Shown here piece after piece: positions 1,184 through 39,503 of a DNA stretch of 64,000 nt. The stretch's first letter is position 1, and every line of letters starts with the position of its first letter. The stretch is from Lingula anatina. Taxonomy: Eukaryota > Animalia > Brachiopoda. The stretch is from positions 3,410,001 to 3,474,000 of the forward strand of contig CM120643.1 of assembly GCA_051362555.1 (NCBI GenBank), in the 5' to 3' direction. A program made the translations under genes and the position numbers. The notes beneath the pieces were generated by a model, which did no database searches, was not told the origin of the DNA, and was given only the letters and a program-made list of their open reading frames with translations.

Positions 1184-1207
1184 ATATATATATATATATA
1201 TATATAT
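1184..1207. repeat. (TA)n microsatellite
   Basis: Run of TA dinucleotides seen directly. Confidence 0.9.
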
Positions 1208-1254
1208 CAAACTGGAAGATTAAAAGTTTGAATAGCATCTTCATTGGAATTATA

Positions 1255-15042: not shown

Positions 15043-15750
15043 AACAAGACAGCAAAGCTGTCAAATATACAGACAAAAAAAATAAATAAAGATGCAAAAA
15101 TAGGTCATTTTGTCAATTGTGATGCAATAATAAATAAGGCTTATGATAGCACAGTTATGGGTGGCCAAAAGGGCAAAAATTCATGTCATCGATTCAGTTA
15201 TGTTTCGTAAACAGTTAGACGATCGATAAGAATAGTTTGACGATCTATGAGAATAGTTTCACGCTCGACGAAAATAGTGACAGCATTGGTTTTAATACAC
15301 TGTTGACAAGAAATGTTTGACAATTGAATTGATGAAAATAGATGCTGAATTTATGATAGGGTCGTTTAAACTTGAAACTGAATCGTTAAGAAGGCACTGA
15401 ATCGACAAAATATAACTGAATCAATGACATGAATTTTTGCCCTTTTGGCCGCCCATACACAGTCAGTCAACAATGGGTTTTAATCATGCACAATAGGTAA
15501 CATGGTCAATAACAGGAGCAGATCCAGAGATATTTTCTGACAGCATTCGAAAGTATCTTTTTTGATCCATCCTTTATTTTTGATGGCCTTCCAACAGAAT
15601 AAAATAGATACCCATCAATGTAAACCCAGAAGATGGTCTCAATCCACCCCATTCAATAAGATTACAGTTTCAGGACCATGAGAGGTCAATGAAAGTCCAA
15701 TATTTGAAAAAATGATGACAGTGCATAAGTAATATTACATAATGTTTTTA
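15043..15750 (-). mobile_element. HINE-like copy 4, 3' fragment, inverted
   Basis: Reverse complement of ~1620-2045 / 10100-10524, including the terminal hairpin and sub-TIR (AACAAGACAGCAAAGCTGTCAAATATACAGACA). Confidence 0.75.
15156..15457. mobile_element. 302-bp MITE with long TIRs and a 6-bp TSD
   Basis: TATGGGTGGCCAAAAGGGCAAAAATTCATGTCAT... / ...ATGACATGAATTTTTGCCCTTTTGGCCGCCCATA. CACAGT duplicated at 15150-15155 and 15458-15463; single in the sister repeat near 10415. Confidence 0.9.
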
Positions 15751-16807: not shown

Positions 16808-17098
16808 TTATCAATGTGCGATGTCGGAGTAGTTATAAGAGACAACACAAACAACGTCTTCAGTTCCAAATCGTAAAGTTCCTTTATTTTTCTTTGAATC
16901 AAATTTTATATTATATTACCAGACAAAATAACATTTTTTAATGTTTATTTTTTTTTTTATTTCTCTTGAGAAAATCTAGAAGGCAACTCTCACACCATAC
17001 CTATTACATTCCAACGCATCTTTGACTTTGCTTTCATTTAGGTATGTGGGAAAAGAAAACCTTCTAGTATCTCATCTTCGAAATAACAATATCATAAT
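16808..17098 (-). repeat. 3' LTR of the Gypsy element
   Basis: Matches 37828-38117; the only difference I saw is one extra T in a poly-T run. Confidence 0.95.
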
Positions 17099-17100
17099 TG

Positions 17101-17111
17101 CTCTCCTCTCC
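17101..17111 (-). other. Polypurine tract
   Basis: Minus strand GGAGAGGAGAG just upstream of the 3' LTR. Confidence 0.85.
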
Positions 17112-18863
17112 AAATAAGTTTTGAGCCTCAAAACTTTTTCACAAATTAAAAAGATCAAATTAAAATAATTAATTAATTAACTCTATAATTCACTCTATAA
17201 TACATTAAATTTAAACTACTTAAACTAATTTGATTAAAAACTTCATTTAAATTTAAATTGAATTAAACAATAGCAATGTAATAATTTTGTTGATATAAAA
17301 CACACAAATAAAATAAAATACAATATTCATAATCACAAGTAAATATTACAATATTTAACACATATAACTTGCATAAGGCTAAGTACTTTTAATATTATCT
17401 TTACTTGTAGTCCTTTAATTGCCTTAATCATAAAAAAGTTTAACAATGGTAAACCAGTCCTGTTTATCTTCATGTAATCATTCAATTATTATGACATATT
17501 CACAAAAAAAATCCTTTAAATATGTTTAAGCAGATATATATATTAATATGCTGGTTTCATTCAAAATATAAACACAAATAACTATCTATATATGATTTTG
17601 AAATATTTAATATTAAAAAAATGAACATTCAAATATCAATATTTCTATTTATAATAAACATTTAAAATTATCATTACTCTCAATTTAGACTTTATTTCTT
17701 TATTTATGGCTATATAATCTCTAAATATCATTACTGCATAGATATATTCAATTATTTTTGATTGAACTTGCACCATATATATACTACAAAAAAAAAATTA
17801 TATAGATAATACATTGCAAAGCATATATACTTATAAACACCTATTCATCAATCACAATTACTGAGTAATTTATCATTTTCAATTAACTAATTGCTTCTTG
17901 ATTGTTACATTACAATTGTCTACTTTATTGCTAATGATAAACAAATAACTATGCAAGATTATTAAATATGTTATATTATTCCTTAACATGATATATAAAA
18001 ATTATGAGGCAAAGACAAGTAACTGTAAAAAATAAACATGCAATACATATATTTACAAACAAAAGCCAGGCAAATATAAGTAAGAGCAGAAAAAGCAAGT
18101 GTTTGAGTTATCCATCCTCCTTTTGCATATTTACACAAAAACAATCTAATTTTGGCACAATGCTAATTTCTCTCCTCCCTTAAAAAAAATATTTATTCAA
18201 TGATAAACCAGAAATTGACAATGGGCAAAATTATAAACTGCTCTTATATAGTCAATTCAATAGCAAGACAATTCTTTGAACTTTTCTTCCTTTTACATAC
18301 CCCAATCAAGATGGCAATAAGTAAAATAATAACAATGCATGATGCTATAATTGATAAGCTTTTCATGTTCAACTATTCTATTCCATTGAAACCAAGTTGA
18401 TGTTGGCATTAGTAAAAACAAAACATGGATTTGCCTTGACCTTTTGAATTGCCAGTACAGTTGTTGATAAAACTTTCACTTCGTAAGCTACTGCTTATGA
18501 AAACAAAATTGTCATTCTTTCAATAATTAAAGCTATGTAGGTTAAAGTTTCATTAAAGTTATCATTACATCTGGTAATTCAACATCTCCTGTTAATAAAA
18601 TTTCACTCAAAGACTAAAAAATAATGTGGTCCTTTTCCATTGTCTCTGCCAATGTACCAAGCCTTACACTTATTTGTGAATCATTGGCTAAAAATTCTCT
18701 AAATTAATGTGACACAGTGAATCCCACGATCCACTTTAAACAAATATTTAATCTAGATCTACTCCTTATCTAGACCAGCTAAAAATAAGGTTAACGTTAT
18801 TTCAATCCAGAAAAAATAGATATCCTCCTAACAATAATAATAGATGTTTTAATTAAGTAGCTA

Positions 18864-19989
18864 CTACTGACTTCTTTTTCTTTTTCCCTTTCATTGTTTT
18901 ATTTGCATGAAACTCTCTTATTAAAATGGAAGGTACCCTATCTGCAGTAACCCAATCAGATTTTTAAAGGTATTTCCATTTAATTCTATACCACTTTGTA
19001 CCCCTGTAATTAACACATTTGATGATTTTTTCTGCTTCATCATAGCGTTCTTTACTTTCTTGGGGTTGTTTATCAACATCTTTTTGACTTCTATTTTCAA
19101 CTGAACTATCCTCATTGTCCTGAATTAATTCCTCAGAGACGTTTTGTTCATTTTTATCATTTCCCACACTCTTTTCTTTTAAAGATTCCCTAATAACAGG
19201 ATCTACGTAAGGTTTTAACCTGTTGGCATGCACAGGAGACCTTAGTTGTTTGTTACTCTCACATTCTCCTAGTAAATATGTAGCCCTTCCTACACATTTG
19301 GCTATGTAATATGGTCCACTATATTTTTCTGTAAGTTTGGGACTCATACCTTTCTTTACTTGGTGATTTTTTAACCAAACCACGTATGTTTCCTTGAAAA
19401 CTGGGAATTCTGCATTTTTATTATAATTTTTGCAATCTTTGTGTTGAGACTCTTTTTTCAATAACATGGCTGCTTGCCTCCCTGTTTCTAATTCAGAAAG
19501 TTTCTCCTTTACAAAGGTCTGTAAAGATGATGTTATATCTTTCTCTGGCTGAACTATCCTATCAAAAGGAGTCTCCATTTCCATTCCAAACAATATATGA
19601 AAAGGTGAATAACCAGTGGCAGTTGATGGTGTTGATCTGTATGCCATCATCACTGAAGGAAGTAAAGATGCCCAATCTTTTTGATTTTTCGCACAGATTG
19701 ATCTCAAAGCTTGGCTAATGAAACTGTTCATTCTCTCACACACACTGTTACTTTGTGGATGATATGCAGAAGTACACACTCTTTCTATCTGATAGATGTC
19801 ACACAAAGCTTTAACCAACTTTGACCTAAAATTTGCACCTCTATCTGAAACTAAAACCTTTGGTGCCCCATATCGAGTAAAGACTTGAGAATACAATATT
19901 TCTGCAATTTCAGAAGCCTCTTGAGTTTTCAATGGAGATGCCTCTGGCCAACGAGAAAATGACTCTACCACTAACAAAATATATTTATA
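18864..19989 (-). pseudogene. pol: Gypsy pol 3' part: integrase core, GPY/F module and chromodomain-like tail with one in-frame TAA
   Basis: YKYILLVVESFSRW..LVSDRGANF..YHPQSNSVCERMN (D,D35E core), KYSGPY..VHANRLKPY, then AEKIIKC..WYRIKWKYL*KSDWV..LIREF ending at TAG 18866-18864. Confidence 0.93.
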
Positions 19990-20796
19990 CAGCTACAGGA
20001 TTAATTTCGAAGACACTTTAATAGCCTTGGTTTATAATCCTTATGGTAGTTAAACGACTATTATCGGTGCGTTAATTATAGGGAATTAAACCTTAAGCCG
20101 TTGGGACCCAGCAGCGATAAATACTACTCTAACTCGGCCTAAATTTACTCAGCTCGCTTTTAGCCACCCACTGTGAGCAGGACACCATCATCAATAGAAA
20201 AATACTCCTGCACTTTCATTAAGATAAACAGGGTGATAAACCCGATGGGGTGAAAATACCGGCCTTTGTTAGTCAGAACAATAGCAGCCCTCGGATCGCG
20301 TCGCGTATTTCTCGAATTAAATGCTCTCAAATTGCCTTATACTGTTGAATAACCACGAAGAAAAAATAATAACTGAAAGTCCTTGAATAATCCCACCTTT
20401 TATAATACTTTTTTTTTTACATTTCAAATGACGAACATTTTGCTGTTGCGAAACACGCTAGTAAAAATCGCGCACTATCTTTCCCGACTTGGGTTTATTC
20501 AATTTGATGCACTATAAAATTAAGAAATTTAAAAGTTATAATTATATCATTGTCAAGGTATTTAATTTCAATTTAAAAAAAATAAATAGTGTATGTATCA
20601 CAGCTGCATAAATTTTCAACATTTTTCTAGTCGTACACCATGATACACCGCAGTAGGGTTATAAGATTGCAGTCATTTTAATTATTCGTATGACAAACAA
20701 ACTGCCAAATTATGAAAGGGGGCACCTTCCGGACCTCCATACATACGGCACCTGGCAAAGCTGATAGACAAAAAGGCAATTTTCAAATTTTCAGCG

Positions 20797-21120
20797 CGAG
20801 ATCGTTTGCAATCCGAGAGAGACGAAGAGGCAATTTTCATATCTGCTAAAAAGACTTCGTTAGCCCAGGGAATTATATCCGATATAATTCCCTGGTTAGC
20901 CAAAGAGCAAGACGAGAACGCAAGTTTCGTATCGTCAGCGGGAGATCGTTCGCAATCCGAGTGAAACGATAATGCAATTCTCATATCCGTTCAAAAGCTT
21001 CTGTTTGCGGAAGATCGTCAGCCGGAGATCGTTCTCGATCTAAGCGAGACGAAGAGGCAATTTCATATTCATTCATGGGGATTGGTTCGCAAAAGAGTGT
21101 CAGCGGCAGATCGTTATCGA
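20797..21120. repeat. Degenerate sub-repeats inside the TA element
   Basis: GAGATCGTT(T/C)GCAATCCGAG..GACGAAGAGGCAATTTTCATAT-like motif near 20797, 20941, 21024 and, partially, 21107. Confidence 0.7.
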
Positions 21121-22640
21121 TTGTTATTAACCCTCCCTTCCCATTGAAATTTATTATTTTATAAAATATTTTCCACTTCATCACACTCCCACCCCATTTT
21201 GGACAGCCTGTATCCCAATACTAGGAAAATGGCTTGGTTCTGGGTGAAATGATGTAATTGAACTTAATTGAATAGCCGCAATGTATTTAATTTTATCTGA
21301 TTTTATTACTGGTGAAAACTTAGCTATGATATTTGGCGAATTAAATTTATTTTAAATTTACATTTAACCGTACCTGGGAATTTTGAAAATCTGTACTTAG
21401 AATTCTAAAAGGTCAGGTTACGCCCCTGATCCTTAACCTACCCCTCGCTGGTTAATTACTAGTTTACTTAACATCACAAAACGCAGTAGATCACTTTCCT
21501 GAAACCGCACTAATACGTGTATCAACAGATTTGCTCGCGGGGTTTATGTAAAGGGTGGTTGATTTTAACTTGTGTATAGGCAGAGCTTAGGTTTTGCGTA
21601 GCTCGTGAAGTTTATATGCACTTTTTCTCAAAAGTGTTTTAACATGTCCTGCCCCACCAGTCAGCTTTTGTTCATTACATCCGGGATATAGCGGTTTCGT
21701 TCGTGTCTCTGAAATATATGAGTCGTCGTAGAAACTTCCAACACTTTACTTGCTTCATGAAAGTCTGCCCTTCCATATCAAAGTCGAACATTCTGCGTGT
21801 GTTGCTAGACTTTGTTTTGATTATTTTTAACGACACAAGTTGATAGAAGTCTTAGCCGCCCTGACGCGTTAACAAGAGTTGCAGCTCTTTGTTAGTAACG
21901 AGCAGTGGTGGGTGGAAGGGTATCACGTGATTTTCGGGAGCCAATGAAAAAAGCGGAAATTTTACAGTCCGTAGTATGTACACAAAAGATCGCGTTTACC
22001 GCAAAATACCAGGAAATAAAAGTTTCACAGGTGCGTACATGAAATTCTTACATTATTTATATAAAATAGTTTTACGGATCCAATAAGACATATGTCAAGA
22101 ATAATCTTGCTACATAACTTTTAAATCTGTGCTATACTTAATATTTTATCACGACTTGTAGTGGACAGTACTGTGTTTTTCATCGGACAATAATAATCGG
22201 AGGTTTTACCATAAACACCCCAACTTTCGAGTGGGTTATCTCGAAAAGCACTCGGACGAATCTTTTTAAAATTTCCTCAAGCTTTCATCGTATATTGAAT
22301 TTTTAAAAAAGTCGATGGCACCCGATGGCACCCCTGGATCTTAAGAGTTATAGGCAGAGAAGTGTTGCATATAAATAGATTTACTGATTTGTAGAATCTT
22401 AGCTAGTATAATTCATGTAGATGGCCCGATAGACTGAAATGTTGTACAATATCATTCCCAATGTGTTAGAAAGTATAATAGCTAAACAATATCAGATTTA
22501 GAAATAACAACAGTGATCAAGAGTTATTTGCAGATGTGGTATTTTACAGTTGTTGAAATCCTACCGGTAGTATACTCAGCTAGTACTCGTACTGTACAGC
22601 AGTTTATAACATACAAGTAAACATAAGTGGGCGAGAGAAG

Positions 22641-25600
22641 ATGGACGAGGTAACTAACTATTTTGTTCATTATGTACACATTTAATGTAATAATATAATT
22701 CCATGGTTAAGTAAGGCATTGCATTTATGTATCTCAACATTTAAGTCATTATTAATAAGTGCCTCTCAGTAACTTACTGTACATTGAGAAGTCTAGTGGT
22801 AATTAATTGCTATTTGGTTACTTTAATAGATGCTGGAATATGGAAAAAGGTGTCGGTCAACTCCAACTGGTTCTACACCTGTGCAAAAGGAAAAACATGG
22901 TAATTCTTTATTAAATCTTTAAGACCATCAATTTGCTTTAACTGAAATGTTTAGTTATAGCTAAAACACACATTGAAAGTCAGGTAAATGGCACTGATTG
23001 GTACATTGAAGATATGTTTAGGTGCAAAGATCTACAGTAGTCATGTATTGATTGAGTTTTCATTATAGTTAGAGCCACGTCTGCCAGGTCTCTCTTCCCA
23101 AATTACAATGATCCATGGCAGAGTAATGAGGTTAGAAAGTTAGTGGAGTTCATTGGAATAGCAGACTCCACATTAACCTCATGCAATGAACACCAGTGGC
23201 CTTCTTCTAAAAATCGCTCATTTTGGCAAGAATGTGCTGAATTTATCAGCAAGGAGGCTGGCACTGTACAAAGATCTGGTAAATTGAAAAGATTTTAGAA
23301 ACTTTCAATGTTTCTTTTTATTGTTGTGAAGTGTTACCTGGTACTTACTTGTTTGTAGTTGTTAAGGATTATAAAATGTAACTAACATTTCATTTCGATG
23401 TATTTCTGAATCCAATGAATTAATAATAATTTTTGTTAATTTTGTTATTTTTTACTAGCAGATTATGGTGGAAGTTTCCAGTCAGGTTTCCTTGCTGCAA
23501 GTTAAACTACAACTGTTCGGGTGGAAGGGATTATTTTTAGGGAAAAGATTTTGTTGATTTTTACTTTTCTGACATACACCTTTGTTTAAGTTTGCTTCAT
23601 TTTGTTCTAGATGGTTATTTAAATTTTGGCTATAAGTGATGAATAGCACTCTGTGAAACATTCTTGAAGATGATTTTCAATTCAAAATGTGCTTGTTCAA
23701 TTTGCTGTGATTGGGGGTGGGGTATTAAACTGTCATGTATTGCACTTGACATGCCCCGTCAATACCCTGATACTCTCAGCATACTAAAAACAAAAGCACA
23801 ATGTATGTATGTATATATATATAGTAAATTTTAATTTAAAAAAAAAAGACCTTAAAGATTTTAAAAAGATTTTAAATAAGTTACGTTCTTTACCGCTGCA
23901 TGCTGTGGTAACTTATACAGCAACTTGTTTATCACTTTTTGTTTTGTTCAAATTTCAATAATAATCACCTTTTTCTTTTTTATTTTTTTTTAGGAAATGC
24001 TTGCAGGACTTATGCCTTGAAGCATCTAGCAAAAAAATTTGACTCTGTAGAAAAGGCTGAAGATCATTTTGGAGTTTATGAACTTGAAGAGGAAAGTGGA
24101 AAGAAAAGTCCAATTGTTGAACATGAAGATGATATTGAATTGATAAAAAGAAAGACCAAAGACATGGACACTGGCCAAATTTTTCATTTGATTGATTTTT
24201 TATGCCAGGAGTTGATAATTGGTGAAAAAGTGTTACCGGCCAATTTTTTTGAATCTCTTCTTTCTTTGGTTCAAACAGAAAATAGAACTCTAATACTTAA
24301 TTTTATAGATGCTCTTAAAAAGGATAGACTGACGCCAGGCAAAATGCCACATGGAATGATTTCATACATTTTTAGTTTTTTATCCAGTGAGGAGATGGGT
24401 CAGGTGATGAGATGCCCGCCTGACTATGAAGCATACATGACAACCATGTATGCCCACTTTGGGAACAAGTGGATATCTCTACATAATGGGCCAATGTGGA
24501 CTGGTACATGTAAGTGCAGACCTTTTATTTATTATTTTATTTAAAGTACTAATTAATGTATGGTTCATTATAAATAAAAAAGTAAGACAGATTTAAACTT
24601 AATTGTTTCTTATATAATTCTGATTTATGAAGCATACTTGTATCTATAGGTTCTGAGAGTACACGAGAAAACTCTGTAGGGAGGGGTAGAGTAGATCACG
24701 ATGAAATGGAAACAGACCACAGTTATAGTGCTGGAACAGAATCAGCTGCCCATGAAGTTGAACTTGCTGGACGGGACCTTCTCAGAGAGGCCATTGATAT
24801 GACTGTAGGTCCATTAGAATGGTGAGTAAATTTAATGGACTCGTTTCTCCCAAATCTATCAGTACACACTTGATGTAAATTTAATGGTTTCTATTTATAT
24901 CATAGTACATATAAGCGTAGACTTTTAGTTTATATAGCATGGCAATAATGACATTTTGTACAATATGAGAGATAAAAAAGACTTTTCTTTTTTACACAGT
25001 TCAACATCAAGATCAACTCTATGGGCAGCTGATTCTGTTTCAGACAGAATGGAAATAGATGAGGGAGATCTCAGCATTGAACACATTGAAAGGCAGCATG
25101 GTTTAGTGAAAGTCAATAAGCACAAACCTATGCAATTGAAGATCATAGAGGTAGGATCAATAATTATTCGAAATTACATTCCATTTAGTTATTGCTATTA
25201 TCATAGATAAGTTTTGTTTACTAATTTTCATTCCATCACATTTACATCTTCAGTACATTTCTGTACACCTCTTTAAAAAAACTTTGATTTACAGGCAAAG
25301 TGCAATATTCCTGGCATCAGTGGCAGGTCCATAAGAAATAAAATAAAGATGTCTGGACATTTTGGATCTAACTGTACGGGCACTTCTGTCCAGATGGGAA
25401 TGATCCATAAAGCCAAGCAATCTAACCCCAGTGGAAAGTGGATTATCAAGTATGATCTAACTGATGTCACTCCTGCCCTAAGGGAGAGTGTCAAACACGT
25501 GTGGGCCGGGGATGTAGACATCGGGGACGGGGAGGTGCAATTTTTACACATGTGCTACAGGGACAAAATAAAGGCTGTCGGAGAAATAAACAAAGGTAAC

Positions 25601-28600
25601 AGAAGGGATGCTGCAGTAGTCCTCAGTGATTTACAGAATCAAAGGAAGTTAGTCCTAGAAGATAGGCCATTTCTGGAAAAAAAATACAAGGAAGCTAAAG
25701 TCAAATACAACTTGAAAATAGAAAAAAAATCAACTCCACCAGAAGAGAAAATGTTAGCCATTGCATGGGACTTACAGGAATGTGAATATTTACTAGAACT
25801 GGGCCTAAAAATATCCAATTCCATTGAAAATGTGTGTACAGCTGTAAGACGGGGTTCTGAAAGATGTATCCCTTCCGATATAACTCAGGTCAAAACAGAC
25901 CTTATGCTTTATTGGAAGGGATCCTTCAAAAAGAAAAGAACTGCTGCTACACATTTACTTGTATTCATGATTTCGGATGAGCAAAGAAACACAAGACCTT
26001 ATGCTTTGCCTGTCAGGTGCCTGGCAGTAAGCACCCTGAAAGACAAGAAAGCAAAACTGCTTACTGAAGAACTAATACAGGCAATGACACAGGAGGGCAT
26101 GCATGTTGTTGGTATGCACTGTTTATAGAATAGAAATTGCAAATGAATAAGTATTAGGCCCATTTAAATGAAAAAGAAAGCATCTGATTTTTTAAAATTT
26201 TTGAAAGATAACTGTTTGTCAGTGGGATATGTTTATATAAAAGTGTTAATTAACAAATTTGTCTCATTTATATTATTATTTTTGTTTTCATTTAAACAGA
26301 TTTATATTTTGCTTTTACATTTCAGGGTCAGTTTCAGACGGTGAATTTAATTCTCTGAGAACAAAGGGAGGAAGACCAATATCAGTCATACAACTTATAA
26401 TGGATTCAAAGGAGGAGGCAAGGAAGATAAATGCAAATCAAATTGAGGTATTCCTAAAAGTACAAAAAGGACCCGGTAAGGATGACTTCATTTGTAATGG
26501 TTGTAAAAAAGATCACAATGTTTGTTTTTAATTTAAAACACACAAAGCATGAGTAATTGTGTTTAACAGACAACTCAATTTTACGCATGCCCCATGATAT
26601 GTTCTGATGAACTTAATTTTTCTTTTACTGTAGATGGAAAGCTACAATCAGAACGAAGGCATGAGGCCATACCACTTGATGACCTTGAAACATTAGCCTC
26701 ACTTCAGGACGAAGGTGTTCTATTTGAAGAAGCTATTTTTGTTTTGAGGAGGAAACATTTTCCTCACATGCATAACCCGTACCCTTGGGTTGCAGGTAAA
26801 CCAATATATCATTTCTGTGAAAATTGAGTACTAGTACATTTTTTAGTAATGTAAGTTGATGCCATTTTGAGAGACAAAAAGAGGTATTATGATGAACTTC
26901 ATATGTTTATATCTATTATTTCAAGGTAAATCTGAAACAAAATCAGACTGCCTCAAGTCTTTAATGGCAACATGGATTTTCCGAAACAAAATCGAAAAGT
27001 TTGCAAGGGAAGGGATAGATTTCAAAAGTCATTTAATGGCTTTTGAATATGATGAAGAAACTGGTAATTATTTATCACACTAATAAAAACAGCTTTAAAT
27101 CTTATTCAACGAGTATCATGCAATCATTATGATTACCACAAAGTAAAGTTTCATTGCAGAGTCAAGATAATTTCATCCTTTAGCATGTAATAATAGCATT
27201 CATAATTTTTGCATAGGTGAACTGCTGCATGAAAGGGAAGATCATGGTCATGTACTAAAAAGAATAACAGCATGTCTCAGAGATGGACAAATTCAGGACT
27301 TTGACTGCACAAAGCTTGTGGAGGCACTGCATGACAAAGACACCAACCTAACATACTCCGCACTTGTAGGGAAAAACAAGCAGAGTGTGCCTGATTGTGA
27401 AAGGTTATTTTAATTTGACCATTCCCACAGATATTTGGACCAATCTATCTCCTTAGGGATTCTCACTGAATTGCTATCAACTTAACCGTCATAAATTTAT
27501 GTCACGCTGTTAATTATCTTTACCCCCTTGCTGGTTTGATAGCAATTTAGTGAGACTCCCCAGGGAGTTAGACCAATCCGGATGGATTGATATAGGCATG
27601 GGAATCCAGGCCTAATATCTAACCTGTAAAATGTTTATAAACTATTTTAAATTGTTTATAAACTATTTTAATTTCCTGAATAATCTACATGTTTTTCCTA
27701 ATACTTACCCCTTTTCATTTTAAGAATATTTTCTAAACCTATGATCACATTCATGGAGGAGAAAGGGTACACTAATGAAGCCAACTTTCTCAAACTCATA
27801 TTCAACTGGCACAGAGCTGCTGATGGCAGAGGACTCACAGAGCAACAAAGAAGGAAATACAACCAGAACTTTTTGAACTATATACTTGATTCCTGGATTC
27901 CATGGCATGCATGGCCAGGTTATAATTATAAGGACATTGATGTCAACTGGTATGTATAGACTACATCATATACACTGAGTGTGACATAATACATTATGCA
28001 TGTACTTCATGTGGGATTTTTTATGGTGGCTTTTAATAAATTATTTTTGATATGTCATACATGGGCAAATATTTAAATTTGTCATCTTATTTGTAGCCCA
28101 ATCAAAGGCATATGTGGTTTAACAAGAGAACTAGTGGTGGCCCTTGTCTGCAATCTAGAGTCGAAGTTGCAGCGGTCTACAGATGTCTCACGCCCTCCAG
28201 AACACCCAAGGGCTTTTACAACCGATGATGTGGAAGCGTTTTTTGCAATGTTGAGGGGGCTGTTGGGAAGAACCTTTGACACAAAACAGTTCTTTGAGCA
28301 ATATCCGTAAGTATATAAGCCTTAAATCATTTTTTGGCATAATGAATGTAAACTTTGATAAAAAACAGCATATTAAATTATTAAAAAAATAACATATAAT
28401 ATATATATCAAATGAGTACTTAAAAATATATATAGATAATTTCCGCATTACTTTCTGATAACATTATTAATGTCTATTCCTTTGCATATTCAGAAAAATC
28501 ATTCAGGAGTTCTTCAAAAAGCTAGACAATGAAGAAAAGTTCCATTATTATACTGGACACTGTGTTTATGGGATAAGTGAACAACTCCCCTCATTTAATG

Positions 28601-28785
28601 AACCTGCTAAAAGTGACAGGATAGAAAAATTGAAGGGAGGGAGAAGGGGAGATCCAGGTATATTTGTGGCAGGTAGGGCAACCTACATCCCAAGAGGTGG
28701 GCAGTCTGTGAGAGCAAGATTCCACCATGCCACTGAAGAGCTACCACCTGTGCAGTTCCCTGTGCCTGATTGTCTATCTGATTGA
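22641..28785 (+). CDS. P-element-like DDE transposase with N-terminal Myb/SANT-like domain, 14 exons, ~1102 aa
   Basis: Exons 22641-22649, 22830-22899, 23069-23278, 23994-24509, 24650-24821, 25000-25150, 25295-26111, 26326-26475, 26634-26795, 26926-27063, 27217-27403, 27725-27949, 28097-28306, 28494-28785; all GT-AG and phase-consistent, 3309 nt, no internal stop (exon 1 least certain). Motifs: IKYDLTDV..GDVD (D1), AATHLLVFMI, VVGSVSDG (D2), EDHGHVLKR (DxxH), KQSV..IFS, TDDVEAFFAMLR (E). N-terminal W..E..LVEFI..WP..FW..A..RSGNACR. Confidence 0.85.
27446..27570. mobile_element. 125-bp MITE with 8-bp TSD in intron 11 of the transposase gene
   Basis: Imperfect ~35-bp TIR TATCTCCTTAGGGATTCTCACTGAATTGCTATCAA / TTGATAGCAATTTAGTGAGACTCCCCAGGGAGTTA; GACCAATC at 27438-27445 and 27571-27578. 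Confidence 0.85.
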
Positions 28786-29085
28786 TATTACAAATGATCA
28801 ATATTACAGTAAGGAATTTTCATCATATTTATTCTTTCAATTTTATTGCAAATTCCTTTGTATTTAAGAGAACATCTTCAAATTTACAGGAAAGGTTCAC
28901 AGTGATCAAAATTAATACAGATGAAATTCAGATATAAGAGTTATGGAACCGTCATGCTTGAAGTAACAGTTTGTTGATAGAAAAAATTTCTTTGTAAATA
29001 TTTTAATTCTATATCAGCAACATAAAAAAATTTCTTAAATTCAATTGGTATATGTAACCAACACTATAAAGAAAATACCAGTTTA

Positions 29086-29922
29086 TTATTGAACATATTT
29101 ACTTTTTCTTATCACTTGGATAGGCCAAGCTCCTTTTTTAGTAACAAATAACTTAACATAAAAACCTGGCACTTTCCACAACCTAAAGGAAATGTTGTCA
29201 ACTCTGCAACCAGTCACTAAATCTAAATTAACGTACCGCCATAATTCCTGTGGTAAATGGCCAATTGTAATCCACTCTCCTTCGTGCAAAATCTGGACTG
29301 CCTTGCTTCCAATAGAATAATCATTATCCAAAATGAGTCTTGTTGATACAGTTTCAATAAGCTTTTTGTTCATTTGGTTATGTATGTTTTTCAATAAGGT
29401 TTGTCTATACTGAAAATGGGCAACCCCCAATACTTTAAAAGGTAGACAGTGCTCAACATTTTCATCAGCAACATCTTCATCAGCATGTCCTTCATCAGCA
29501 ATGTCTTCATCAACAACCTCTTCATCAGCAACATCTTCATCAGCATCTCCTTCATCAGCAACATCTTCATCTTCCCCCTCCTCTTCTTCACTACTTAGGT
29601 TTTTGTTGTCATCCTCGATGAAAGGTGCACTATCAGACTCCCAGTCCCAAACAATTAGGCAGGGACCAAATAACTTAATGTTAGTTTTGAAAAAGTAACG
29701 GACAAAAATGGTAAAAGGTTCAACATTTAATTGCAGACTTAAAATATCACTAGATGAAAATAAAGCTGTCTGTCTTGATCCATTACATAGTACAGTGGTT
29801 CTAAGCAATTCAACAGAAATGCCTGGGAAACAAGGAATAGTGTGTGTTATTTTGTCTGGAAAAACTTCTAAAACAGTCATTTCCTCATCACCTCCTTCTT
29901 CTGCTTTACAAATGCATAACAT
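29086..29922 (-). CDS. Transposon accessory protein: unknown N-terminal domain, acidic repeat linker, C-terminal HIRAN-like domain (278 aa; 5' end may be spliced)
   Basis: C-terminal pattern LPFKVLGV..TRLILDNDY..KAVQI..IGHLPQEL resembles HIRAN (FxVxG..lxxxxxNxyDxxAixV..iGyvP). Tandem DEDVADE repeats. Splice acceptor TTTTCAG ends at 29925, just upstream of the ATG. Confidence 0.7.
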   Translation of the reverse strand: MLCICKAEEGGDEEMTVLEVFPDKITHTIPCFPGISVELLRTTVLCNGSRQTALFSSSDILSLQLNVEPFTIFVRYFFKTNIKLFGPCLIVWDWESDSAPFIEDDNKNLSSEEEEGEDEDVADEGDADEDVADEEVVDEDIADEGHADEDVADENVEHCLPFKVLGVAHFQYRQTLLKNIHNQMNKKLIETVSTRLILDNDYSIGSKAVQILHEGEWITIGHLPQELWRYVNLDLVTGCRVDNISFRLWKVPGFYVKLFVTKKGAWPIQVIRKSKYVQ

Positions 29923-32900
29923 GTCTGAAAATAATTAATACATAGAAAATATGTGACACTGATCTATTGCTGAGCTGCAGGTGTACCGGTATATAGAATC
30001 TGTCTTGAGATGAAATATACATTTGGTGTAGATATGGGGTATATTCCTTTCTTTTTATGACATATTTATTAATTTAAATTTTAAATTTAATTCGTTTTGA
30101 ATTATTATGGAGCAAACAATTACACCTACCTTTCCCAGTTTGTTAAAATAAGCAGGACTTAGAGCAAGATGAGTATGTATACAGTGGGCAATAAAATGAC
30201 GTCGACCACACGACCAAACGATAAATAACGACGTAACGTTACGATTCACCCGTGCACATACTAGAATTTCCAAAAACATTTCTTTTTTACAGTGACATAG
30301 TTCATTTCCGAGTTTTTTCTATCGAGTCTGACCCCTGAAAAGTCAATGAAAGCATCAATATAACATTTTATTAATTCTTCAAGCAACAAATAAATGATAT
30401 AAAATTTACGTTATTACCATGTAAGTGTCGCATTATTGAACGACGTTACAGGAAGACGTCGCCGGGAGCTCACTTTCGATGTTTACTCTTCGACGGCAAA
30501 ACGTCAAATGAGACATGTGCGTGCGCATCTTTTGACGTATCACGTGATACCCTTCCAACCACCACTGGTAACGAGCTAATTGCACTCTTAACCTACCCCT
30601 CGCTGGTTAATTACTAGTTTAGTAAACAGTACAAAACGCAGTGCAAAACGAAGATCACTTTCCTAAAACAGAAAAAAACTCTGTATCAGTTCACATATGC
30701 TATCTCATCCATCTTCACTACACAAATATGAGCGGTAGCTGTCGTGTGTACTGGGTAAGGGGGTAGCAGTGAAACATTTGTTATAAATATAGATACAAAT
30801 AATGTTCGCATCCTTCACCCCCTGGTAAATAATTAAAAAAGTGGGTTGATATGTATTGTAGGGTGGCGTTCCGTAATCGTTTTTATTATCTTATCATTTT
30901 CTTTTGTGTGAACGTTCTTTGTCATGAAGTGCGTTGAGTCAGATGGTTTTATCCCCCGAATAGCTGAACGATTCACTGTCCATCTCATGCGTGTGACAGT
31001 TGCTTTTTATATATGTTTTAATTTTGTTCGCAATGTATGTATATTATTTGGTATACGATGCGGTGTACAGAATGTGGTCACAGACGTAAATATTTGCATC
31101 GTGATAGACTGGGCTTCGAGATCTAGGTGGAAAAGGCAAATTAGGTTAATAACGAAGTTTATGGCCACAGTAATTAGTGGCCGATTTCTCACCTCATTCT
31201 CTTCAACCAGAGGTAGTTACAGATAACCATCGCCTGTCTTTATTTCAGGGACATTAGTGCTGGCTCATGACAGCATTGATAGTTTCCTACTCTTTTGTCA
31301 CTTCCTCTTCCATTGTCTGTTGAGGTATGTCCGATGAATACCGATAAGGACAGAGACAACAGCACGCATATAACAATACTGCTGGAAGGCTCAAAATTAT
31401 CACAGTTTATGTAATTTTATTTCAGAGATCAACTTAAAGATTGAAAGCACTCACTACCAACACTCGAAATTTGTACAAATACTTTTTTCGAAATGAACGT
31501 TCTCAAACGGAATGTTGAGATGTTGGTATGTGCTTTGTAGGCTGTTGATTGAGATCGGGTTCAGCCCCGTCGTAAGAAAAAATATGTTATAGTGATCCAA
31601 AACTATGCGATATTATACTCATTTTTGCTTTATTATTATTTAAGATATATTATAATATTATCTGTAGGTGAAACAAGAATGTAGTGATGAAAAAAAAGTA
31701 GGAGGGAAAACCAGAGGACTAGCAGACTCCTTATATAAAATAATGACAGGGAGAAAACCTGATGTGAGAGTGGCCTTTGTCTTCTGTCTTTCTTTCAAAT
31801 TTTACTGCACTGCAGATACCAATGTTTCTAACTTTTTTGTTGAAGAATGCTGATACTGGTACGTGTTACTTTGGAACGCTTGACCCACGTAGCATCCTAG
31901 GGGTATATAAGTTTTCACTGTGACAGGAAAAAAAAAAACAGAAGAAAAAATTGCTGAAGTGTTTCCTTTTATTTATACTGATGAATCTGTTATCTGTTTG
32001 CCAAAAAGCATTTTTGGTTTGACCACATTCTCTATTGTGTCTGTCTGAAGAGAAAAAAGGATACAGGGTATATATTAGAAGCGTTTTACTTGGGAGGGGG
32101 GTCTACATATTCAATATACAATATGTATGCGTACATGAAGAACAATTGCATTATCATAAAGAAGGTTTAATTAAGTTTTGTTTACATTAATACAAACGCT
32201 GGATAATTTTTACAGAAAGTTAATTGTCCTTAAAACGTCCTATATTTTATCAAATTTTCAGCAAGCAGTAATCTGTAAAATGAAGCAAATAAAAACAAAC
32301 AATTTAAACACTGAAAATTCTTATGAAAATTAGGCTATTTAAGGGCCCTTTTATTACTTAATATGAAAAACGGACCTATTTAAAACAACTTTTACCATCA
32401 AGCAAATGTTGATAACAAAATAATACTGAACGTTGCATGAAGTGAATATGTTAGTTCGAATGTTAGTTTGATCTTTTTTCCACAATTTAAAAGTTTAACT
32501 GTTTTAAAGGTTTAACTTGTTACTTAAAAGTCTAATTTAGTTTAATAGTCTAACCGAACAAATGTTGATTCCATGCAATTAATGGTTATAAAATTTAAGT
32601 TGACTTTTAGATGAAACATTAAAACAAAAATAGTGAGCAACATGGCAACATAAAAATAACCGCAAACAAACCAATAAATTAACACTGTGGTCGCATAAGG
32701 CATGTACATGTGCCTACATCGTCTGAATTACCTTTGTAACCGTACTTGTAACCTGGAATTCAATTGGATATAAAAGTGTAAAGTAAACAAAAAGGTTACT
32801 GAGGTGCATAAGCACTTTTAACAGTTCTATCTAAAAGCTATAACGACTTTGTCGCAATGTAGTTAGCGCGTTCGATATACTGTTGCTTGCACATGTAAAA

Positions 32901-33564
32901 AATGGCGCCAATGAAATATCAGCCGCGTGCTCAAAGTCGACTCGACGCGGAATGTAGTTATTGTTTTGAAAATAAAGTTTCTGTGAATGGTGGCCTGAAA
33001 AGATGTTTACAGTGTAATATGAAGTTTTAAAGAACATATTAAACCACGGCAGCATTAGTATATTCATATCAAGCAGACTCTGTGCATATACGCTAGTCAT
33101 GCCCTGCAATGTGAGGGTCACGCTGTCGAGATCGCCCGTTCAACTGTTCAGGTAAAATTTAAGTAATGCTCGGCAAATCCATAGTGAAATAAGTCAATCA
33201 AGTTGTCTAGCGAGATATATGATGCAAGCACGTTCCACAAGGTTATAATTAACTGAAGCGATCTTAATAGCTGATTCAACGAGCCACACGTCGTTTACCG
33301 GATTACATAACAAGCAAAGATAAAGTGGTGTTGGCGTCCCGCTGCGGCTTCAACAGCTTATTTTGACAAGGCTCGCGCTACGTGATGGCTTGAGAAAAAC
33401 ATCATTGTTAAACCTTAGTGTCGATGCGTTAATTACTTATGGTCGCATTGTCTTCTTCCCACGGCGACCATTCATAAAAAGGGGGCGTAGTTAGGTATTA
33501 GACGAATTTTTTAATCACCCAACGCGTTAGTGGTGCGTTGTCCTCTGACATAATCCGTTACCTG

Positions 33565-36395
33565 TATCTCTCATTTGTCTCTGGTAGTGGCCCTAAAATG
33601 TCCATATGCCATGTATGGAAAACATCATTGATAGGTAATGGTTGCAATGGAGCTGGATGATGGTGATATTTTCTTTTTGACCTTTGACAAACTTCACAGG
33701 ATTTTACGTAATGTTTGACATCCTTGTAAACAGTGGGCCAAAAATACTTCAGTCGAATCTTTTCTAAAGTTCTTTGAAACCCTTGATGACAACCACCTAC
33801 TTTAGAATCATGATAAAATTTCAACAATTCACTTCTCATTCCCTTAGGAATTACTATTTGTTCAACAACTCTACAATCACCTACTCTTTTCTTTTGTTTA
33901 CTTTGGTAATGATGACACAATATTCCACACTCATCTATGAAATAATTATCTTTCAGATATTGCTCACTTTTATTCAATGGAAATTCTGTAGAAGCTAGAG
34001 CCTTGAAAATCACATCCAAATCCACTGAATTCTTTTGTTCCTTAACCAGATCTTCACTTTCAACAGTTATTGAGTACACAGATATATCTTCCTCAATTTT
34101 TGTTTCTTGACTGTGTCCTTCACTGACCTCATTTTCCTCATCATATTTCTGTCTAGACAAACAATCTGTTGGATTCAACCGACCTTTCTTGTAAACAATG
34201 TCAAAGTCTAAATCCTGCAATTGCAGCGACCATCTCTCTAATTTCTGATTTGTAGACCTTTTTGATTTGAGCCATTCTAATGGTTTGTGGTCTGTCACTA
34301 CAGTAAAGTGATTTGTTTGCAAAAATTGTCTAAATTCTTTTACACCCTCAACCAGTGCAAGACATTCCTTTTCTGACGTGCAGTAATTCTTTTCTGAACT
34401 TCTTAAAACTCTTCCACCATATGCAATTGCATGCTCTCTATTGTCATCACCAATCTGACTCAACATGTAACCAATCGCAAAATCAGATGCATCAGTAGTC
34501 AACTTGAAAGGCTTATTCATATTTGGATAAGCTAAAATTGGAGCTTTCACTAACTGGTCCTTTAACTCATTAAAGGCTTTATTTGTTTCCTCAGTCCACT
34601 CAAATTTTTCTGAATCTCTTGTTAATCTACATAGAGGAAATGCTATTTTATCATAATCTCTAACAAATCTTCTGTAATAATTGGCCATTCCAAGAAAACT
34701 TTTCATTTCTTTTTGATTTTTTGGTTTTTGAATTTTCTTCACTGCCTCAACCTTTGACATATCAACTTCTATACCATTTTTGGAAATAATATGTCCCAAA
34801 AATTTAATTCTTTCTGTGACAAATTTACATTTGTTTGGTTTTAAAGTCATGTTTGCCTCTCTCAATCTCTGAAATATCAACTCAAGATGTTCTAGGTGTT
34901 CCTCAAAAGTCTTACTAAAAACTAGTATGTCATCTATGTATGTCAAAGCACATTTCCAATTCAAATCTTTGAGAATTCTTGCCATAACAGACTGATATGT
35001 CGCACCGGCATTTCGAAGGCCGAAAGCTAAACGCTTAAATTGAAAATGCCCATGATGAGTAACAAAAGCTGTCTTAGGTTGAGATTCTGGATCTAACGGA
35101 ATTTGCCAATAACCACTCGCACAGTCCAATGAAGAGAAATACCTACTTTCACTTTCTCCTACAGTGTCAAAAATATCAGACAATCTTGGTAATGGAAAAT
35201 GAATAGGCTGAGTAACACTGTTAAGTCTACGATAGTCTATAGCAAATCTTAATGTACCATCTTTCTTTTTTACTAAGACTACAGGACTTGCCCATGGACT
35301 ACTAGATTCTTCTATGATTCCATACTTCAACATTTCATCCGTTTGTCTTTCTATCTCAGCTCTGTTAGCTGGTGTCTGCCTATAATGAGCTTGTCTTTGA
35401 GGTAGTGCATTTCCAGTTTCGATAACATGACCTGAAATTTTAACCTCTCCTAATTCTTCCAAAGACAATGCAAAAACATCTCTATTTTGTGCTAAGAACT
35501 TTGTCAAAACAATTCTCTGAGTCTCCGTCACATCAGATGATGAAAGGTCAATTCCCATGTTCTTCACTACTTCATTAGCATAAACATTCTGAGATTGTTT
35601 ATCCTTAACTACACTAGTATCATCTCCTGAGATATTCATATCAATACTTGCTTTGTTCTCTAAACTATAAATTTTCTCACGTTCTACTGCAGTCGCTTTG
35701 GCTAAAACCTTATTTTTGGGAATAACAATGGATCTCTCTGTTGGATTGTAAACTCTACATACTGTTGAACCCTTCTTTGGTTGTAAAACTGACTTTGCCA
35801 ACATAAATTTGGTATTAGTAGGTTCTACTAACAAACAGCTATTTTTGATTCTATTGATTCTTGCCACCCTGACTGGAATAATAGTTTCGGATCTAGGTTC
35901 CAGAACTACCTTGCTAGATGTTCTTACTAAACCAATATAATTAGGTTTTTGCAAAGTATGTTTATTTCTGTTTCCTTGCAAATACAGAGAATTATCATTC
36001 AAGTCAATGATGGCTCCATTTGTTTTCAAAAAATCTAAACCCAAAATGATTCCTCTAGGTAAATTTTCAAAAACATGAAAAATATGAGAAAATGTTTGAC
36101 ACCCAATCTTCAGTTTCAAAAGGGTTTGACCTAAGGTGTTATATTTTTGACCTCCTACACCAGATATACTTTTGATTTTTGAACTTTGCATAGAACTTTT
36201 GAATTCTGAATCTATTCTTTCAAATGTCTTCTTGGATATACAGGATATACTTGCTCCTGTATCAACTAAGGATAAAACTGAATTTTTGCCAATAAAAACC
36301 TGAATTAAATTGTTGTTTTGGGGATCTTCAGAAAAAATTTCACTCATGTCCACTTTTTGATCAGAGATTGAAGATTTCACATTGTGCCCGTACCC
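33565..36395 (-). pseudogene. pol: Gypsy pol 5' part: protease, reverse transcriptase, RNase H, integrase Zn-finger; truncated by the insertion
   Basis: LVDTGAS; WASPVVLVKKKDG..DYRRLN; FGLRNA; YIDDILV; TDASDFAIG..EKECLA..TDHKPL; HDSK..GCHQG..CEVC; WHMDILGP. Confidence 0.96.
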
Positions 36396-37766
36396 CTATT
36401 GTTTAACAGATCGGCAAACCGCCGCAAAATGACCCATTTTCCTACAATTAAAACATTGTTTGTTTTTAGCTCTACATTTGTTTGGAGGATGGTACTCACC
36501 ACAATAACTGCATCTTGCTTCTCTTCTGCGCCAACTCTGCCATGGCCTAAAATTTCTGTTCGGAAGGTTAGATGGTCTTCCTCCCTTCTGAAAGTAAACT
36601 TGTTGCGAATTAGATTTGTCTGTGCTATTTGCAACACTAACCTCTGCATTTTCACACTTCAGGTTTTGAAATATGTCAATCATTTTATGTAAACTATTCT
36701 CTACTACTTTCTCAATGCTGTGCTCAAGTGCACTTACAGTAGCTGAACTATTTTCCTTGACAGCATTTTCTGCTAAGACTGAAGATTTTATCAAGTCATT
36801 AATTGATCTTGGATTTTGCTGCACCACTATTGTTTTAATGCTACTATCTAAACCATTTATGATAGCCATTTTGAGATGTTCTTCGGGAAGATTTGTGTCT
36901 TTCCCTAGATTTATCATTTTTGCAATATAGTCTTGTACATTTTCACAATTTTGCTTCAAAGAAAATAAATGAACCATTTTGGCTCTGATAGATAGATTTT
37001 TTTCACCATATCTCTGTTTGAAATGTGTTACTAAAGAATCAAAATTATTTTTCACATTGTCTTCCAAAGACAGAAACCATTGTCTTGCTTTTCCAGTCAT
37101 AAAAAATTGAAAAAGTGACACTTTCTGTTCATTTGAATATTTCATTAGTGTACAATATTGAATGTACTTCTCTATCCATTCCCTTCCATTTTCACAACTT
37201 TCTCCTTGAAATGGCAGTGGGCTTACATGTTGAGGAATTGTAATAACAACAGAATTGTTTATCTGTTGCTCTCTATTCGTTGACTGGCTAGCTGATGATG
37301 TATGGGGAACTTCTCGACTTGCTGTTGTGGTTAGGAGATTGTCATAAAGTGGAAAATGTCTCGTAGCTGTTGTTACTTCTGGGGTCTGATGAACACTTGC
37401 CCGCATAGAGGTTCCTTGATCACTTGGATGCCATGGGAACTGCTGGCTCTCTGTACTCATTGCCTTTGGACGTACAATCGGATTCATGGTGTAGTTTTCC
37501 ATCACTGCAGTTGGTTTGCTGATACCAGTAGCTTGCAGTGGAGAATGCTGTCTGCTTGGTGTTATAGTTACTGAACTCGTGTAAATTGGCGACATCATAG
37601 CATCTGGTATTAATTTTGCTGCCTTTGTGCTTTCTGGATTTTTATCATTTTCATTCTCTCCGACATCTTCATTGATAGTTCTCAATTTATCTTTTATGAT
37701 GTCTCTTTCCATTTTTCTGGCAGCTGATGTATAACTTCGTGTTTCTTTAGGAGAATATTTTTTCAT
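36396..37766 (-). CDS. gag: Gypsy gag (456 aa)
   Basis: Capsid-like region (FQG..EWIEKY..GKARQWF..LKQ..VQDY) and C-terminal zinc knuckles CSYCGEYH..C and CFNCRKMGHFAAVC; lies directly upstream of pol. Confidence 0.93.
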   Translation of the reverse strand: MKKYSPKETRSYTSAARKMERDIIKDKLRTINEDVGENENDKNPESTKAAKLIPDAMMSPIYTSSVTITPSRQHSPLQATGISKPTAVMENYTMNPIVRPKAMSTESQQFPWHPSDQGTSMRASVHQTPEVTTATRHFPLYDNLLTTTASREVPHTSSASQSTNREQQINNSVVITIPQHVSPLPFQGESCENGREWIEKYIQYCTLMKYSNEQKVSLFQFFMTGKARQWFLSLEDNVKNNFDSLVTHFKQRYGEKNLSIRAKMVHLFSLKQNCENVQDYIAKMINLGKDTNLPEEHLKMAIINGLDSSIKTIVVQQNPRSINDLIKSSVLAENAVKENSSATVSALEHSIEKVVENSLHKMIDIFQNLKCENAEVSVANSTDKSNSQQVYFQKGGRPSNLPNRNFRPWQSWRRREARCSYCGEYHPPNKCRAKNKQCFNCRKMGHFAAVCRSVKQ

Positions 37767-37812
37767 TGTGAAAGTCTGGGATCTTCCTTTTAAACAATAT
37801 TATTAAAAGTTT

Positions 37813-37825
37813 GGTACCTCCACCA
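37813..37825 (-). other. Primer-binding site, probably tRNA-Ala
   Basis: Minus strand TGGTGGAGGTACC two nt after the 5' LTR; complementary to the ...ACCUCCACCA 3' end typical of eukaryotic tRNA-Ala. Confidence 0.75.
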
Positions 37826-37827
37826 AT

Positions 37828-38117
37828 TTATCAATGTGCGATGTCGGAGTAGTTATAAGAGACAACACAAACAACGTCTTCAGTTCCAAATCGTAAAGTT
37901 CCTTTATTTTTCTTTGAATCAAATTTTATATTATATTACCAGACAAAATAACATTTTTTAATGTTTATTTTTTTTTTATTTCTCTTGAGAAAATCTAGAA
38001 GGCAACTCTCACACCATACCTATTACATTCCAACGCATCTTTGACTTTGCTTTCATTTAGGTATGTGGGAAAAGAAAACCTTCTAGTATCTCATCTTCGA
38101 AATAACAATATCATAAT
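37828..38117 (-). repeat. 5' LTR of the Gypsy element
   Basis: Direct repeat of 16808-17098. Confidence 0.95.
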
Positions 38118-38196
38118 GTTACCCCTAAGATTATGCATTTAAATTGTCTTAACACTTGGACAATGTACACTTTTTTTTTTCTTATAGGCAGACAAT

Positions 38197-39503
38197 ATGA
38201 CCACAGTGTGGAAGTTAGCTATCAAGAAAAACTCCACTAAACTGATGAAAGACATGGAGGTTTTAGAAATGATTCCATATTTGTATGAAAACAATATCCT
38301 CACTGATCATCAGCATGATCACATACAAAATGCTACTGGGAGAGAAACTCAGGGTAAGATTCTTCTTGGTTATATACTGAGGAAGGACCCTGCATTGGAT
38401 CCCTTCGGACATTTCATTTGTGCCCTCCAGTGTACAAACCAAAATCATTTGGCACAAGGTCTGATCAATTCATACAACTGGCTAGAACAAGAAGGCTATG
38501 GAAATATGGATATTCCAGAAGAAATTCTTAATGATCCTTGCATATGTAACTTTGAATCCATGAGTCTTTTGTATGGCCATCAGAGGGTTTCATGCAACTG
38601 CTCACTCATAATCAAAACCACGAAGAAGGTTCTGAAATGTATTCAGTTTCTTATCACATTTTTATTGGCATTTCTGCTTTCATTATTTACATATAAGCAC
38701 ATTATCAAACCACCTGCAGCAAGTTCCTGTTCATTGAGGAAATTTAAATACACTCCCTTCAAAATATTAAGGCAATTCTTTCACTCCATAGCCCTGCAGG
38801 TATATGACCATTTGATTGAACCTCTGGTTTTGAGCTCGAACTCACAGTGTTTAGTTTATCTCCTTCATTTGGTTGGGTACAACTCGGCTTATATTTATTT
38901 TCCCTTTATAATAATGACACCAGTAGCATTCCTCATATACATATGCATTACTATCGCTTTCATGCTTAGCGGAACATGCAGAGCCTCAACATGTACCTAT
39001 AGACAATGTCCAGTAACATCTAAGAGATTTTACAGGTAATTATGATATGTGTCGCTGTGGTCTTTATTCCTAAAGCACTTGAAGAAGTTAAAACAATGAC
39101 AGCTGTAGTTTTACCACCAATTACACTTGTTTTGATTATGGTCTTTGCCATGGTCAGTTTACTTCTGACCCTCTTCCCAATATTTTCTTTATCCATAATG
39201 AACATATGTTCTCTGGTATGTGTGGGTGTTGAATATGGGTACTTCTTTAATAAATCATTGTTTCTTTCAAGCTATCCACTGCTGTACATTGTGATATGTT
39301 CCATTTTAGTGTCAGGTATTGATGGCTCACGACATACATATGTCTCATTAAGACATTTAAGTTCTATATTCACATGTGATGACCAAAATTTTCTCCTAGT
39401 CTTAAGCAGAATATGGTTCTTTATGCTGGTTTTATTTGCATATACATGTATACTTGCACCGAAATATTTTTCTGATCTTTGTCAACTAAAGTCCTTCCTT
39501 TAA
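38197..39503 (+). pseudogene. CARD domain + multi-pass transmembrane protein, split into two ORFs by an apparent 1-nt deletion near 39021-39024
   Basis: N-terminal ~90 aa fit a CARD (IKKN..L..M.V..MIPYLYENNILT..H..I..T...Q...LL.YI.RK..F..F..AL..TNQ.HLA..L). About 6-7 hydrophobic segments across ORFs 38197-39039 and 39042-39503. Adding one A (TCT AAA GAG) joins them into ~435 aa. Strong acceptor poly-T..CTTATAG ends at 38187. Confidence 0.7.

Follow-up and report, generated by a model that had tools for sequence, protein, structure and literature searches.

A stretch of 64,000 nucleotides of the Lingula anatina genome (contig CM120643.1, positions 3,410,001 to 3,474,000; hereafter the window) contains an 8.7-kb element with a multi-exon transposase gene and a second, convergent gene, ORF2 (open reading frame 2). 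On balance, we consider it probable that this is an intact, likely autonomous cut-and-paste transposon of P type, in which a Myb/SANT-like domain stands in place of the THAP domain and ORF2 provides an old, optional HIRAN-like helper that would bind the single-stranded 3' ends generated by excision. A prediction made earlier from the window alone (the original prediction) had proposed a P-like, two-gene transposon at this location, and its individual claims are taken up below where the results bear on them.

The boundaries of the element are sharply defined (Table 1). The two terminal inverted repeats (TIRs) match at 28 of 29 positions, the element ends in CA..TG, and the same 8-mer is found on both sides, so that the near-identical TIRs and the perfect 8-bp target-site duplication (TSD) of the original prediction were both recovered. 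The first 18 nucleotides of the TIR occur twice in the window, compared with 0.02 occurrences expected by chance. A joint lacking the element (21894 to 30568) was present in contigs of DNA runs X1 and X2, and the skipped length, 8673 nucleotides, equals the element plus one TSD. This joint probably stems from other (paralogous) copies of the repeated host flank, because its short side measures 24 letters and the flank is repetitive; it still fixes the boundaries of the element. In X1, contigs exact for the interior have a depth of 46–50 and end at 22143 and 30340, and the bin at the left end stands at ~1,000. The contrast suggests many short relatives that share the element ends, depth not being equivalent to copy number. 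No TIR pairs were recovered in the relative loci, the contigs of which are short.

The transposase gene comprises 14 exons separated by GT-AG introns throughout and encodes 1102 amino acids in a single open frame, in agreement with the fully open 14-exon, 13-intron gene of about that size proposed originally. Spliced contigs of run X4, which is labelled 'DNA?' and yet contains spliced contigs, confirm 9 of the 13 introns (1, 4, 5, 6, 7, 8, 11, 12 and 13; intron 8 with one variant letter), and introns 2, 3, 9 and 10 are not among the X4 joints listed. Intron positions near residues 97, 649, 697, 937 and 1010 coincide with recurrent breaks between high-scoring segment pairs in relative loci. Raw RNA reads are sparse, with X18 reaching a depth of at most 2.6 over ORF2 and the strand indistinct, and Rfam gave no match.

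Several splice variants were seen: X4 contigs skip exon 7 (region 25148–26324) and exon 10 (region 26793–27215), and X18 uses an internal donor in the Myb exon (region 23128–23460). Splice forms that are cut short but keep the DNA-binding part could serve as repressors, as in Drosophila P. A 39-nt stretch of exon 5 (24731–24769) recurs inverted in exon 6 (25005–25043) with 87% identity, which hints at an inverted duplication in the linker. Within intron 11, positions 27417–27609 belong to a repeat of very high abundance (bin depth 39,000–63,000 in the DNA runs) that is also present in RNA reads, and of which only a fragment is found here.

A profile built from four sequences retrieved 2,327 clusters at E ≤0.001. 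The named members come from Branchiostoma, Glandiceps, Ptychodera, Amphiura, Mytilus and Mizuhopecten and are mostly annotated as uncharacterized or hypothetical; by these matches, the transposase family is large and widespread in marine invertebrates (amphioxus, acorn worms, brittle star, bivalves). Scans of viral and prokaryote contigs for the transposase yielded nothing. For structural comparison, the homologue P0007, which is 37% identical to the window transposase over 1161 columns, was modelled with AlphaFold from a 140-sequence alignment (predicted local distance difference test, pLDDT, 73.7) and used as a stand-in for the window protein. In a VIA search of this model against 48,161 representatives, the best match was the Drosophila P transposase 6p5a (Z 16.5, 275 residues aligned, root-mean-square deviation, rmsd, 11.4). 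A second P transposase structure, 6pe2, was matched with Z 16.1 (322 aligned, rmsd 9.0), and the rows that come after P transposase are helical bundles with Z ≤10.1. Foldseek with the same model found no match at E ≤0.001, and PDB sequence searches with queries A1 and A2 found no transposase. The P-type Pfam family TNP-like_RNaseH_N recurred as a hint of the catalytic core, at E 0.00015–0.1.

The P-type catalytic core that had been proposed is also apparent from individual residues. Among aligned relatives, D430 is conserved in 64 of 66, D653 in 27 of 34, D807 in 41 of 44, H810 in all 44 and E982 in all seven; D807xxH810 places a D(2)H signature between the second Asp and the Glu, as in the P superfamily. 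The catalytic residues of Drosophila P given in the available text of PMC7776569 are D230, D303 and E531, and the residues of its GTP pocket and insertion domain are D528, K385, K400, V401, S409, F443, D444 and N447. The first two Asp residues are 223 positions apart, versus 73 in P, which corresponds to ~150 extra residues modelled as a helical bundle, and the second Asp and the Glu are separated by 329 positions, versus 228 (~100 extra), in accord with the long catalytic-region insertions originally noted. Mapped by motif spacing, with no residue-level superposition, V856/S864 and D979/E982 are conserved and spaced as V401/S409 and D528/E531 of P, and W889/H890 would stand in for F443/D444. 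Because the pocket is partly kept by this mapping, the insertion domain may still use GTP. To our knowledge, P transposases are the only GTP-using transposases.

The N-terminal region is of a different kind from that of P transposases. No THAP-type C2CH pattern was found in the gene model, in ten homologue N-termini or in three frames of the 5' region, and no window or homologue protein scanned had a Pfam THAP match, as expected from the claim that THAP is absent. All ten homologue N-termini share a W-x-E-L ... WP ... FW domain. Pfam Myb families matched the window protein, four of 21 proteins and three of six locus segments at E 0.0004–0.08, all below threshold (best match 20.9 bits, cut-off 24.4), and both matches of a PDB profile search extended to E 10 begin at Myb/SANT-type Trp motifs. 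The domain forms three helices in the P0007 model (pLDDT ~95), and VIA superimposed model residues 67–135 on residues 2366–2435 of chain 9caf_A (Z 7.5, rmsd 2.7), which we take to be the SANT region of EP400. The Myb/SANT-like N-terminus of the original prediction is thus a family-wide feature, and it likely takes the place of THAP in gripping the element ends.

ORF2 lies on the opposite strand, where a second gene had been predicted, and 300 nt separate its stop codon from that of the transposase. A splice acceptor immediately upstream of the ATG suggests a 5' non-coding exon. An Atlas feature search with residues 165–278 returned HIRAN clusters as 27 of 30 matches (score 0.92); the top match is an unnamed 133-aa eukaryotic cluster (0.93), and the N-terminal 110 residues had no Atlas match. 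The likeness of ORF2 to HIRAN includes the strand pattern, with an FxVxG start and IG[HY]. A family of P0156-type proteins, found by using pieces of two relative loci (L015 and L035, described below) as seeds and including one named member from Desmophyllum pertusum, gives weak Pfam HIRAN matches in 9 of 16 proteins and contains the motif EPxN-x2-D-x-NAI. Global alignment of ORF2 with this family, with domain boundaries chosen by the analyst, gave a z of 6.4 (0 of 1000 shuffles). Used alone as a query, ORF2 found no direct homologue, PDB sequence searches with ORF2 and A6 found no HIRAN, and the single-sequence fold model of ORF2 (pLDDT 35.5) is too low in confidence to reveal a six-stranded beta-barrel of the HIRAN kind. 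Taken together, the Atlas matches and the homology to the P0156 family argue that ORF2 is probably HIRAN-like; the HIRAN assignment of the original prediction stands in this weaker form, at a sub-threshold level.

Relatives of the transposase were collected from metagenomes as at least 50 loci in 20 groups, six of which extend more than 1 kb downstream of the transposase and are informative about the partner gene. The partner is present tail-to-tail in two of these (L017 and L035), ambiguous in one (L015/L012) and undetected in three. At L017, an opposite-strand piece ~1 kb downstream matches the end of ORF2 better than anything else in the window (E 1e-4; 0 of 2000 shuffles), and L035 carries a decayed gene with the order of parts seen in ORF2: a Cys-containing N-terminal part, an acidic tract and a HIRAN-like domain ending in KKGxW. 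No partner was seen in three more groups with 0.6–0.8 kb downstream, which is too short to count. In a FastTree tree of the transposase core (the window, 20 of the 50 loci, hand-picked, and nine proteins; midpoint root), two deep clades are resolved, one with the window and L017, the other with L035 and L015. The occurrence of the partner in both deep clades points to an old gene that is optional, or that has in many cases diverged beyond detection. The original prediction had stated that homologous transposases without a linked HIRAN gene would mark it as one-off cargo; related tail-to-tail genes at L017 and L035 speak against a one-off, and the three informative groups in which no partner was detected go part of the way towards it. 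Partner scans of viral and prokaryote contigs yielded nothing, and the matches of P0161 to phages were all at chance level.

A number of observations weigh against the reading that we favour. The short side of the empty-site joint is only 24 letters long, and the joint is not seen in X3 or X5. The spliced X4 contigs differ from the window and have a 1-nt deletion at 25529, and they are therefore from a related copy. The P-like fold is known from a homologue and the rmsd is high, and the GTP pocket departs from that of P in its aromatic and Asn residues. Pfam, including HIRAN PF08797, had no match to ORF2, and in the 13 of 20 family proteins with HIRAN matches the scores, at 12–17 bits, all remain below the gathering cut-off of 24.7. 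The profile of the P0156 family scores ORF2 at 6.7 bits, a value attained by 6 of 2000 shuffles, and the hhalign probability is 3–12%. The usual end-binding motif, EPxN-x-D-x-NAI, is degenerate in ORF2, although it is kept in the P0156 family; N90 and N91 of HLTF are needed for function, which together with the degenerate pocket motif speaks against a role in capping ends. At L015, only the first part of a partner-like gene is present, ~220 nt past the point where L012 and L015 diverge, and no partner was found within the downstream sequence of L012 (2.8 kb), L044 (5.6 kb), L049 (1.5 kb) or L031 (1.1 kb). Finally, the link of the P0156 family to L015 and L035 exists by construction, as these supplied the seeds.

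Under the favoured reading, the Myb domain would bind sites near the element ends, the RNase H core would make a P-like staggered cut and excise the element, and integration would take place with an 8-bp offset. The 17-nt stagger of P leaves 3' overhangs. P transposase cleavage is GTP-dependent with a 17-nt stagger (PMC7776569), HIRAN binds the 3'-OH of single-stranded DNA, and the HIRAN domain of HLTF recognises nascent 3' ends at forks (PMC4666394, PMC11237066). The isolated HLTF HIRAN domain binds the post-cleavage 3' end and acts as a dominant negative, blocking HLTF from stripping the Cas9 post-cleavage complex (PMC11237066). By analogy, capping 3' ends would be the most parsimonious task for a HIRAN protein that lacks a motor and travels with a P-type element, a proposal that we regard as quite possible but short of probable. 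The HIRAN-like protein might cap 3' ends at the donor break or on the excised element and, as part of the same tentative proposal, might compete with host HLTF, stabilising the post-cleavage complex or steering repair. A bolder version, in which the element represents an ancient, undescribed P-type branch, dispersed among marine invertebrates, that exchanged THAP for Myb and has had a motor-less HIRAN protein since its root, capping 3' ends and blocking host HLTF, seems doubtful to us; in this version, unrelated DDE superfamilies may have taken up the module as well.

The HIRAN-like gene could also be a promiscuous passenger of a genuine P-type element, gained repeatedly or devoid of a role in transposition (for example, host-manipulating or anti-silencing cargo). 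We judge this unlikely: the undetected partner in half of the informative groups and the degenerate motif of ORF2 would fit such cargo, but side, strand and orientation of the gene agree among the window, L017 and L035, its domains come in one order in both the window and L035, and the L017 partner is nearer ORF2 (score 66) than P0161 (47), matching its transposase, which is likewise closer to the window, in a comparison of four points only. The recognition of nascent 3' ends at forks by HLTF HIRAN, cited above, is compatible with a protein that directs integration to free 3' ends, those of stalled or reversed forks included, instead of protecting the excision break. Such targeting requires contact with the transposase, which nothing here supports, and the sole insertion site observed is an ordinary repeat, making this role improbable.

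That the element belongs not to the P type but to another C/DxxH superfamily (hAT, Kolobok, MuDR or Dada) we consider highly improbable. An 8-bp TSD is also made by hAT elements, and the Foldseek matches listed include weak ones to Transib (E 0.09) and Hermes (E 0.39) and none to P transposase. The C/DxxH signature is likewise shared with hAT (PMC9587614). Against this, VIA puts P transposase far above the rest of the representatives, with Hermes not among the 50 rows listed, the recurrent Pfam hint is of P type, and a TTAA TSD and RR..YY ends are both missing.

P elements have been described as transposons with one gene and a THAP domain. With the P superfamily as described in the available text on Drosophila P, THAP9, 1360 and Galileo (PMC7776569, PMC3698922), the element shares short TIRs, an 8-bp TSD, which falls within the 7–9 bp of the superfamily, transposase introns, and a DDE core of the RNase H type that carries D(2)H and is split by a helical insertion domain, and it is here that the best structural match lies. 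It differs in the Myb/SANT-like domain, the 13 introns, the 8.7-kb length, the second convergent gene and the wider catalytic spacing. Because the THAP feature fails, we class it as P-type and not as a canonical member of the superfamily. PIF/Harbinger elements have 3-bp TSDs and carry the Myb domain on a second protein of its own, whereas here Myb is fused to a P-type transposase; a Myb/SANT-like domain and two genes are common to both. KolobokP and other Kolobok elements (PMC9587614) resemble the element in their C/DxxH-type transposase and in a downstream second gene on the complementary strand that is missing in some families. By analogy, an accessory gene that is convergent and not always present has its precedent in KolobokP; the TTAA TSD, RR..YY ends, long terminal direct repeats and His-Me nuclease partner of Kolobok were not found here. 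The likeness of ORF2 to HLTF/Rad5 and to standalone bacterial HIRAN (PMC4666394, PMC11237066) is limited to the feature level and a weak profile; it differs in having no motor or nuclease attached, a degenerate Asn-rich pocket motif and an extra C-terminal K[KR]GxW.

Titles and abstract beginnings in the literature mentioned neither this lineage nor a eukaryotic DNA transposon with HIRAN, Repbase, Dfam and supplements being outside the scope of this search, and term searches of the available text of PMC10294476 and PMC10027918 found nothing on this lineage. The transposase lineage may well be catalogued already in Repbase, Dfam or supplements. As the element is intact, was probably inserted not long ago and combines a different DNA-binding module with an apparently altered GTP pocket, it offers a test of which parts of P chemistry are essential; many invertebrate genes now labelled 'uncharacterized' also gain an identity through it. 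Should the partner cap 3' ends, the transposon would handle host repair of its own breaks, which would be relevant to transposon tools; should the partner antagonise HLTF, a transposon would be encoding an antagonist of a host factor that processes DNA ends.

The P-type element is nested within a TA-flanked host element, which lies within the integrase gene of a Gypsy retrotransposon. The insertion is likely recent, because the frame is intact, the TSD is perfect and the TIRs have a single mismatch, and this part of the original prediction is upheld. Its argument from a position inside a young long terminal repeat (LTR) element applies indirectly: the 4.9-kb host element intervenes, and it is this element that splits the Gypsy, the LTRs of which are equal at 290 of 291 columns. 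The P-type element could have arrived already within the host element, and the LTRs therefore give no strict date for it.

Table 1. Coordinates of the P-type element, its genes and the surrounding elements in the window.
Feature	Position	Strand	Basis or remark
P-type element, whole	21903..30567		8.7 kb, intact frame
Left TSD, 8 bp	21895..21902		Identical 8-mer on both sides; empty-site joint
Left TIR, 29 bp	21903..21931	+	Pairs with right TIR
Right TIR	30539..30567	-	Pairs with left TIR
Right TSD, 8 bp	30568..30575		Copy of left 8-mer; empty-site joint
Exon 1 (start codon)	22641..22649	+	Gene model; intron 1 joint in spliced contig
Exon 2	22830..22899	+	Gene model
Exon 3, Myb/SANT-like helices 1-2 (aa 27-97)	23069..23278	+	Profile matches
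Exon 4, end of Myb/SANT-like domain and helical region	23994..24509	+	Gene model, homologue alignment
Exon 5, acidic linker; in P0007-type, missing from P0001/P0002-type relatives	24650..24821	+	
Exon 6, linker	25000..25150	+	Gene model
Exon 7, catalytic D430, helical-bundle insertion, subsequent RNase H strands	25295..26111	+	Conservation, homologue model
Exon 8, second catalytic Asp D653	26326..26475	+	Conservation
Exon 9	26634..26795	+	Gene model
Exon 10 (skipped in one X4 contig)	26926..27063	+	Gene model
Exon 11, D807xxH810 and KQSV	27217..27403	+	Conservation
Exon 12, insertion-domain FS and WH..DGRG motifs	27725..27949	+	Conservation
Exon 13, D979 and catalytic E982	28097..28306	+	Conservation
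Exon 14, C-terminal domain and stop	28494..28785	+	Gene model, homologue alignment
ORF2, 278 aa: N-terminal domain, acidic linker, HIRAN-like C-terminal domain	29086..29922	-	
HIRAN-like domain of ORF2 (probable)	29089..29451	-	Atlas features, family alignment
Host DNA element	19990..33564		4.9 kb without P-type insert; CAG..CTG ends, TA-flanked, genome-repeated
Gypsy LTR retrotransposon	16808..38117	-	LTRs 16808-17098 and 37828-38117; integrase split by host element

The boundary of the host element is given by a joint between 19987 and 33565 in X1, X2 and X3. Its CAG..CTG ends are imperfect, its read depth is high and its open frames are all short, and it contains an internal direct repeat at ~21432 and ~30586. 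The young Gypsy element codes for gag, protease, reverse transcriptase, RNase H and integrase. Elsewhere in the window, positions 1–15700 contain large repeats, both interspersed and in tandem, among them a 138-nt tandem array (4776–6180) within a 633-aa minus-strand open frame (4558–6459), and two overlapping open frames of 283 and 159 aa lie to the right of the Gypsy LTR, at 38188–39503.

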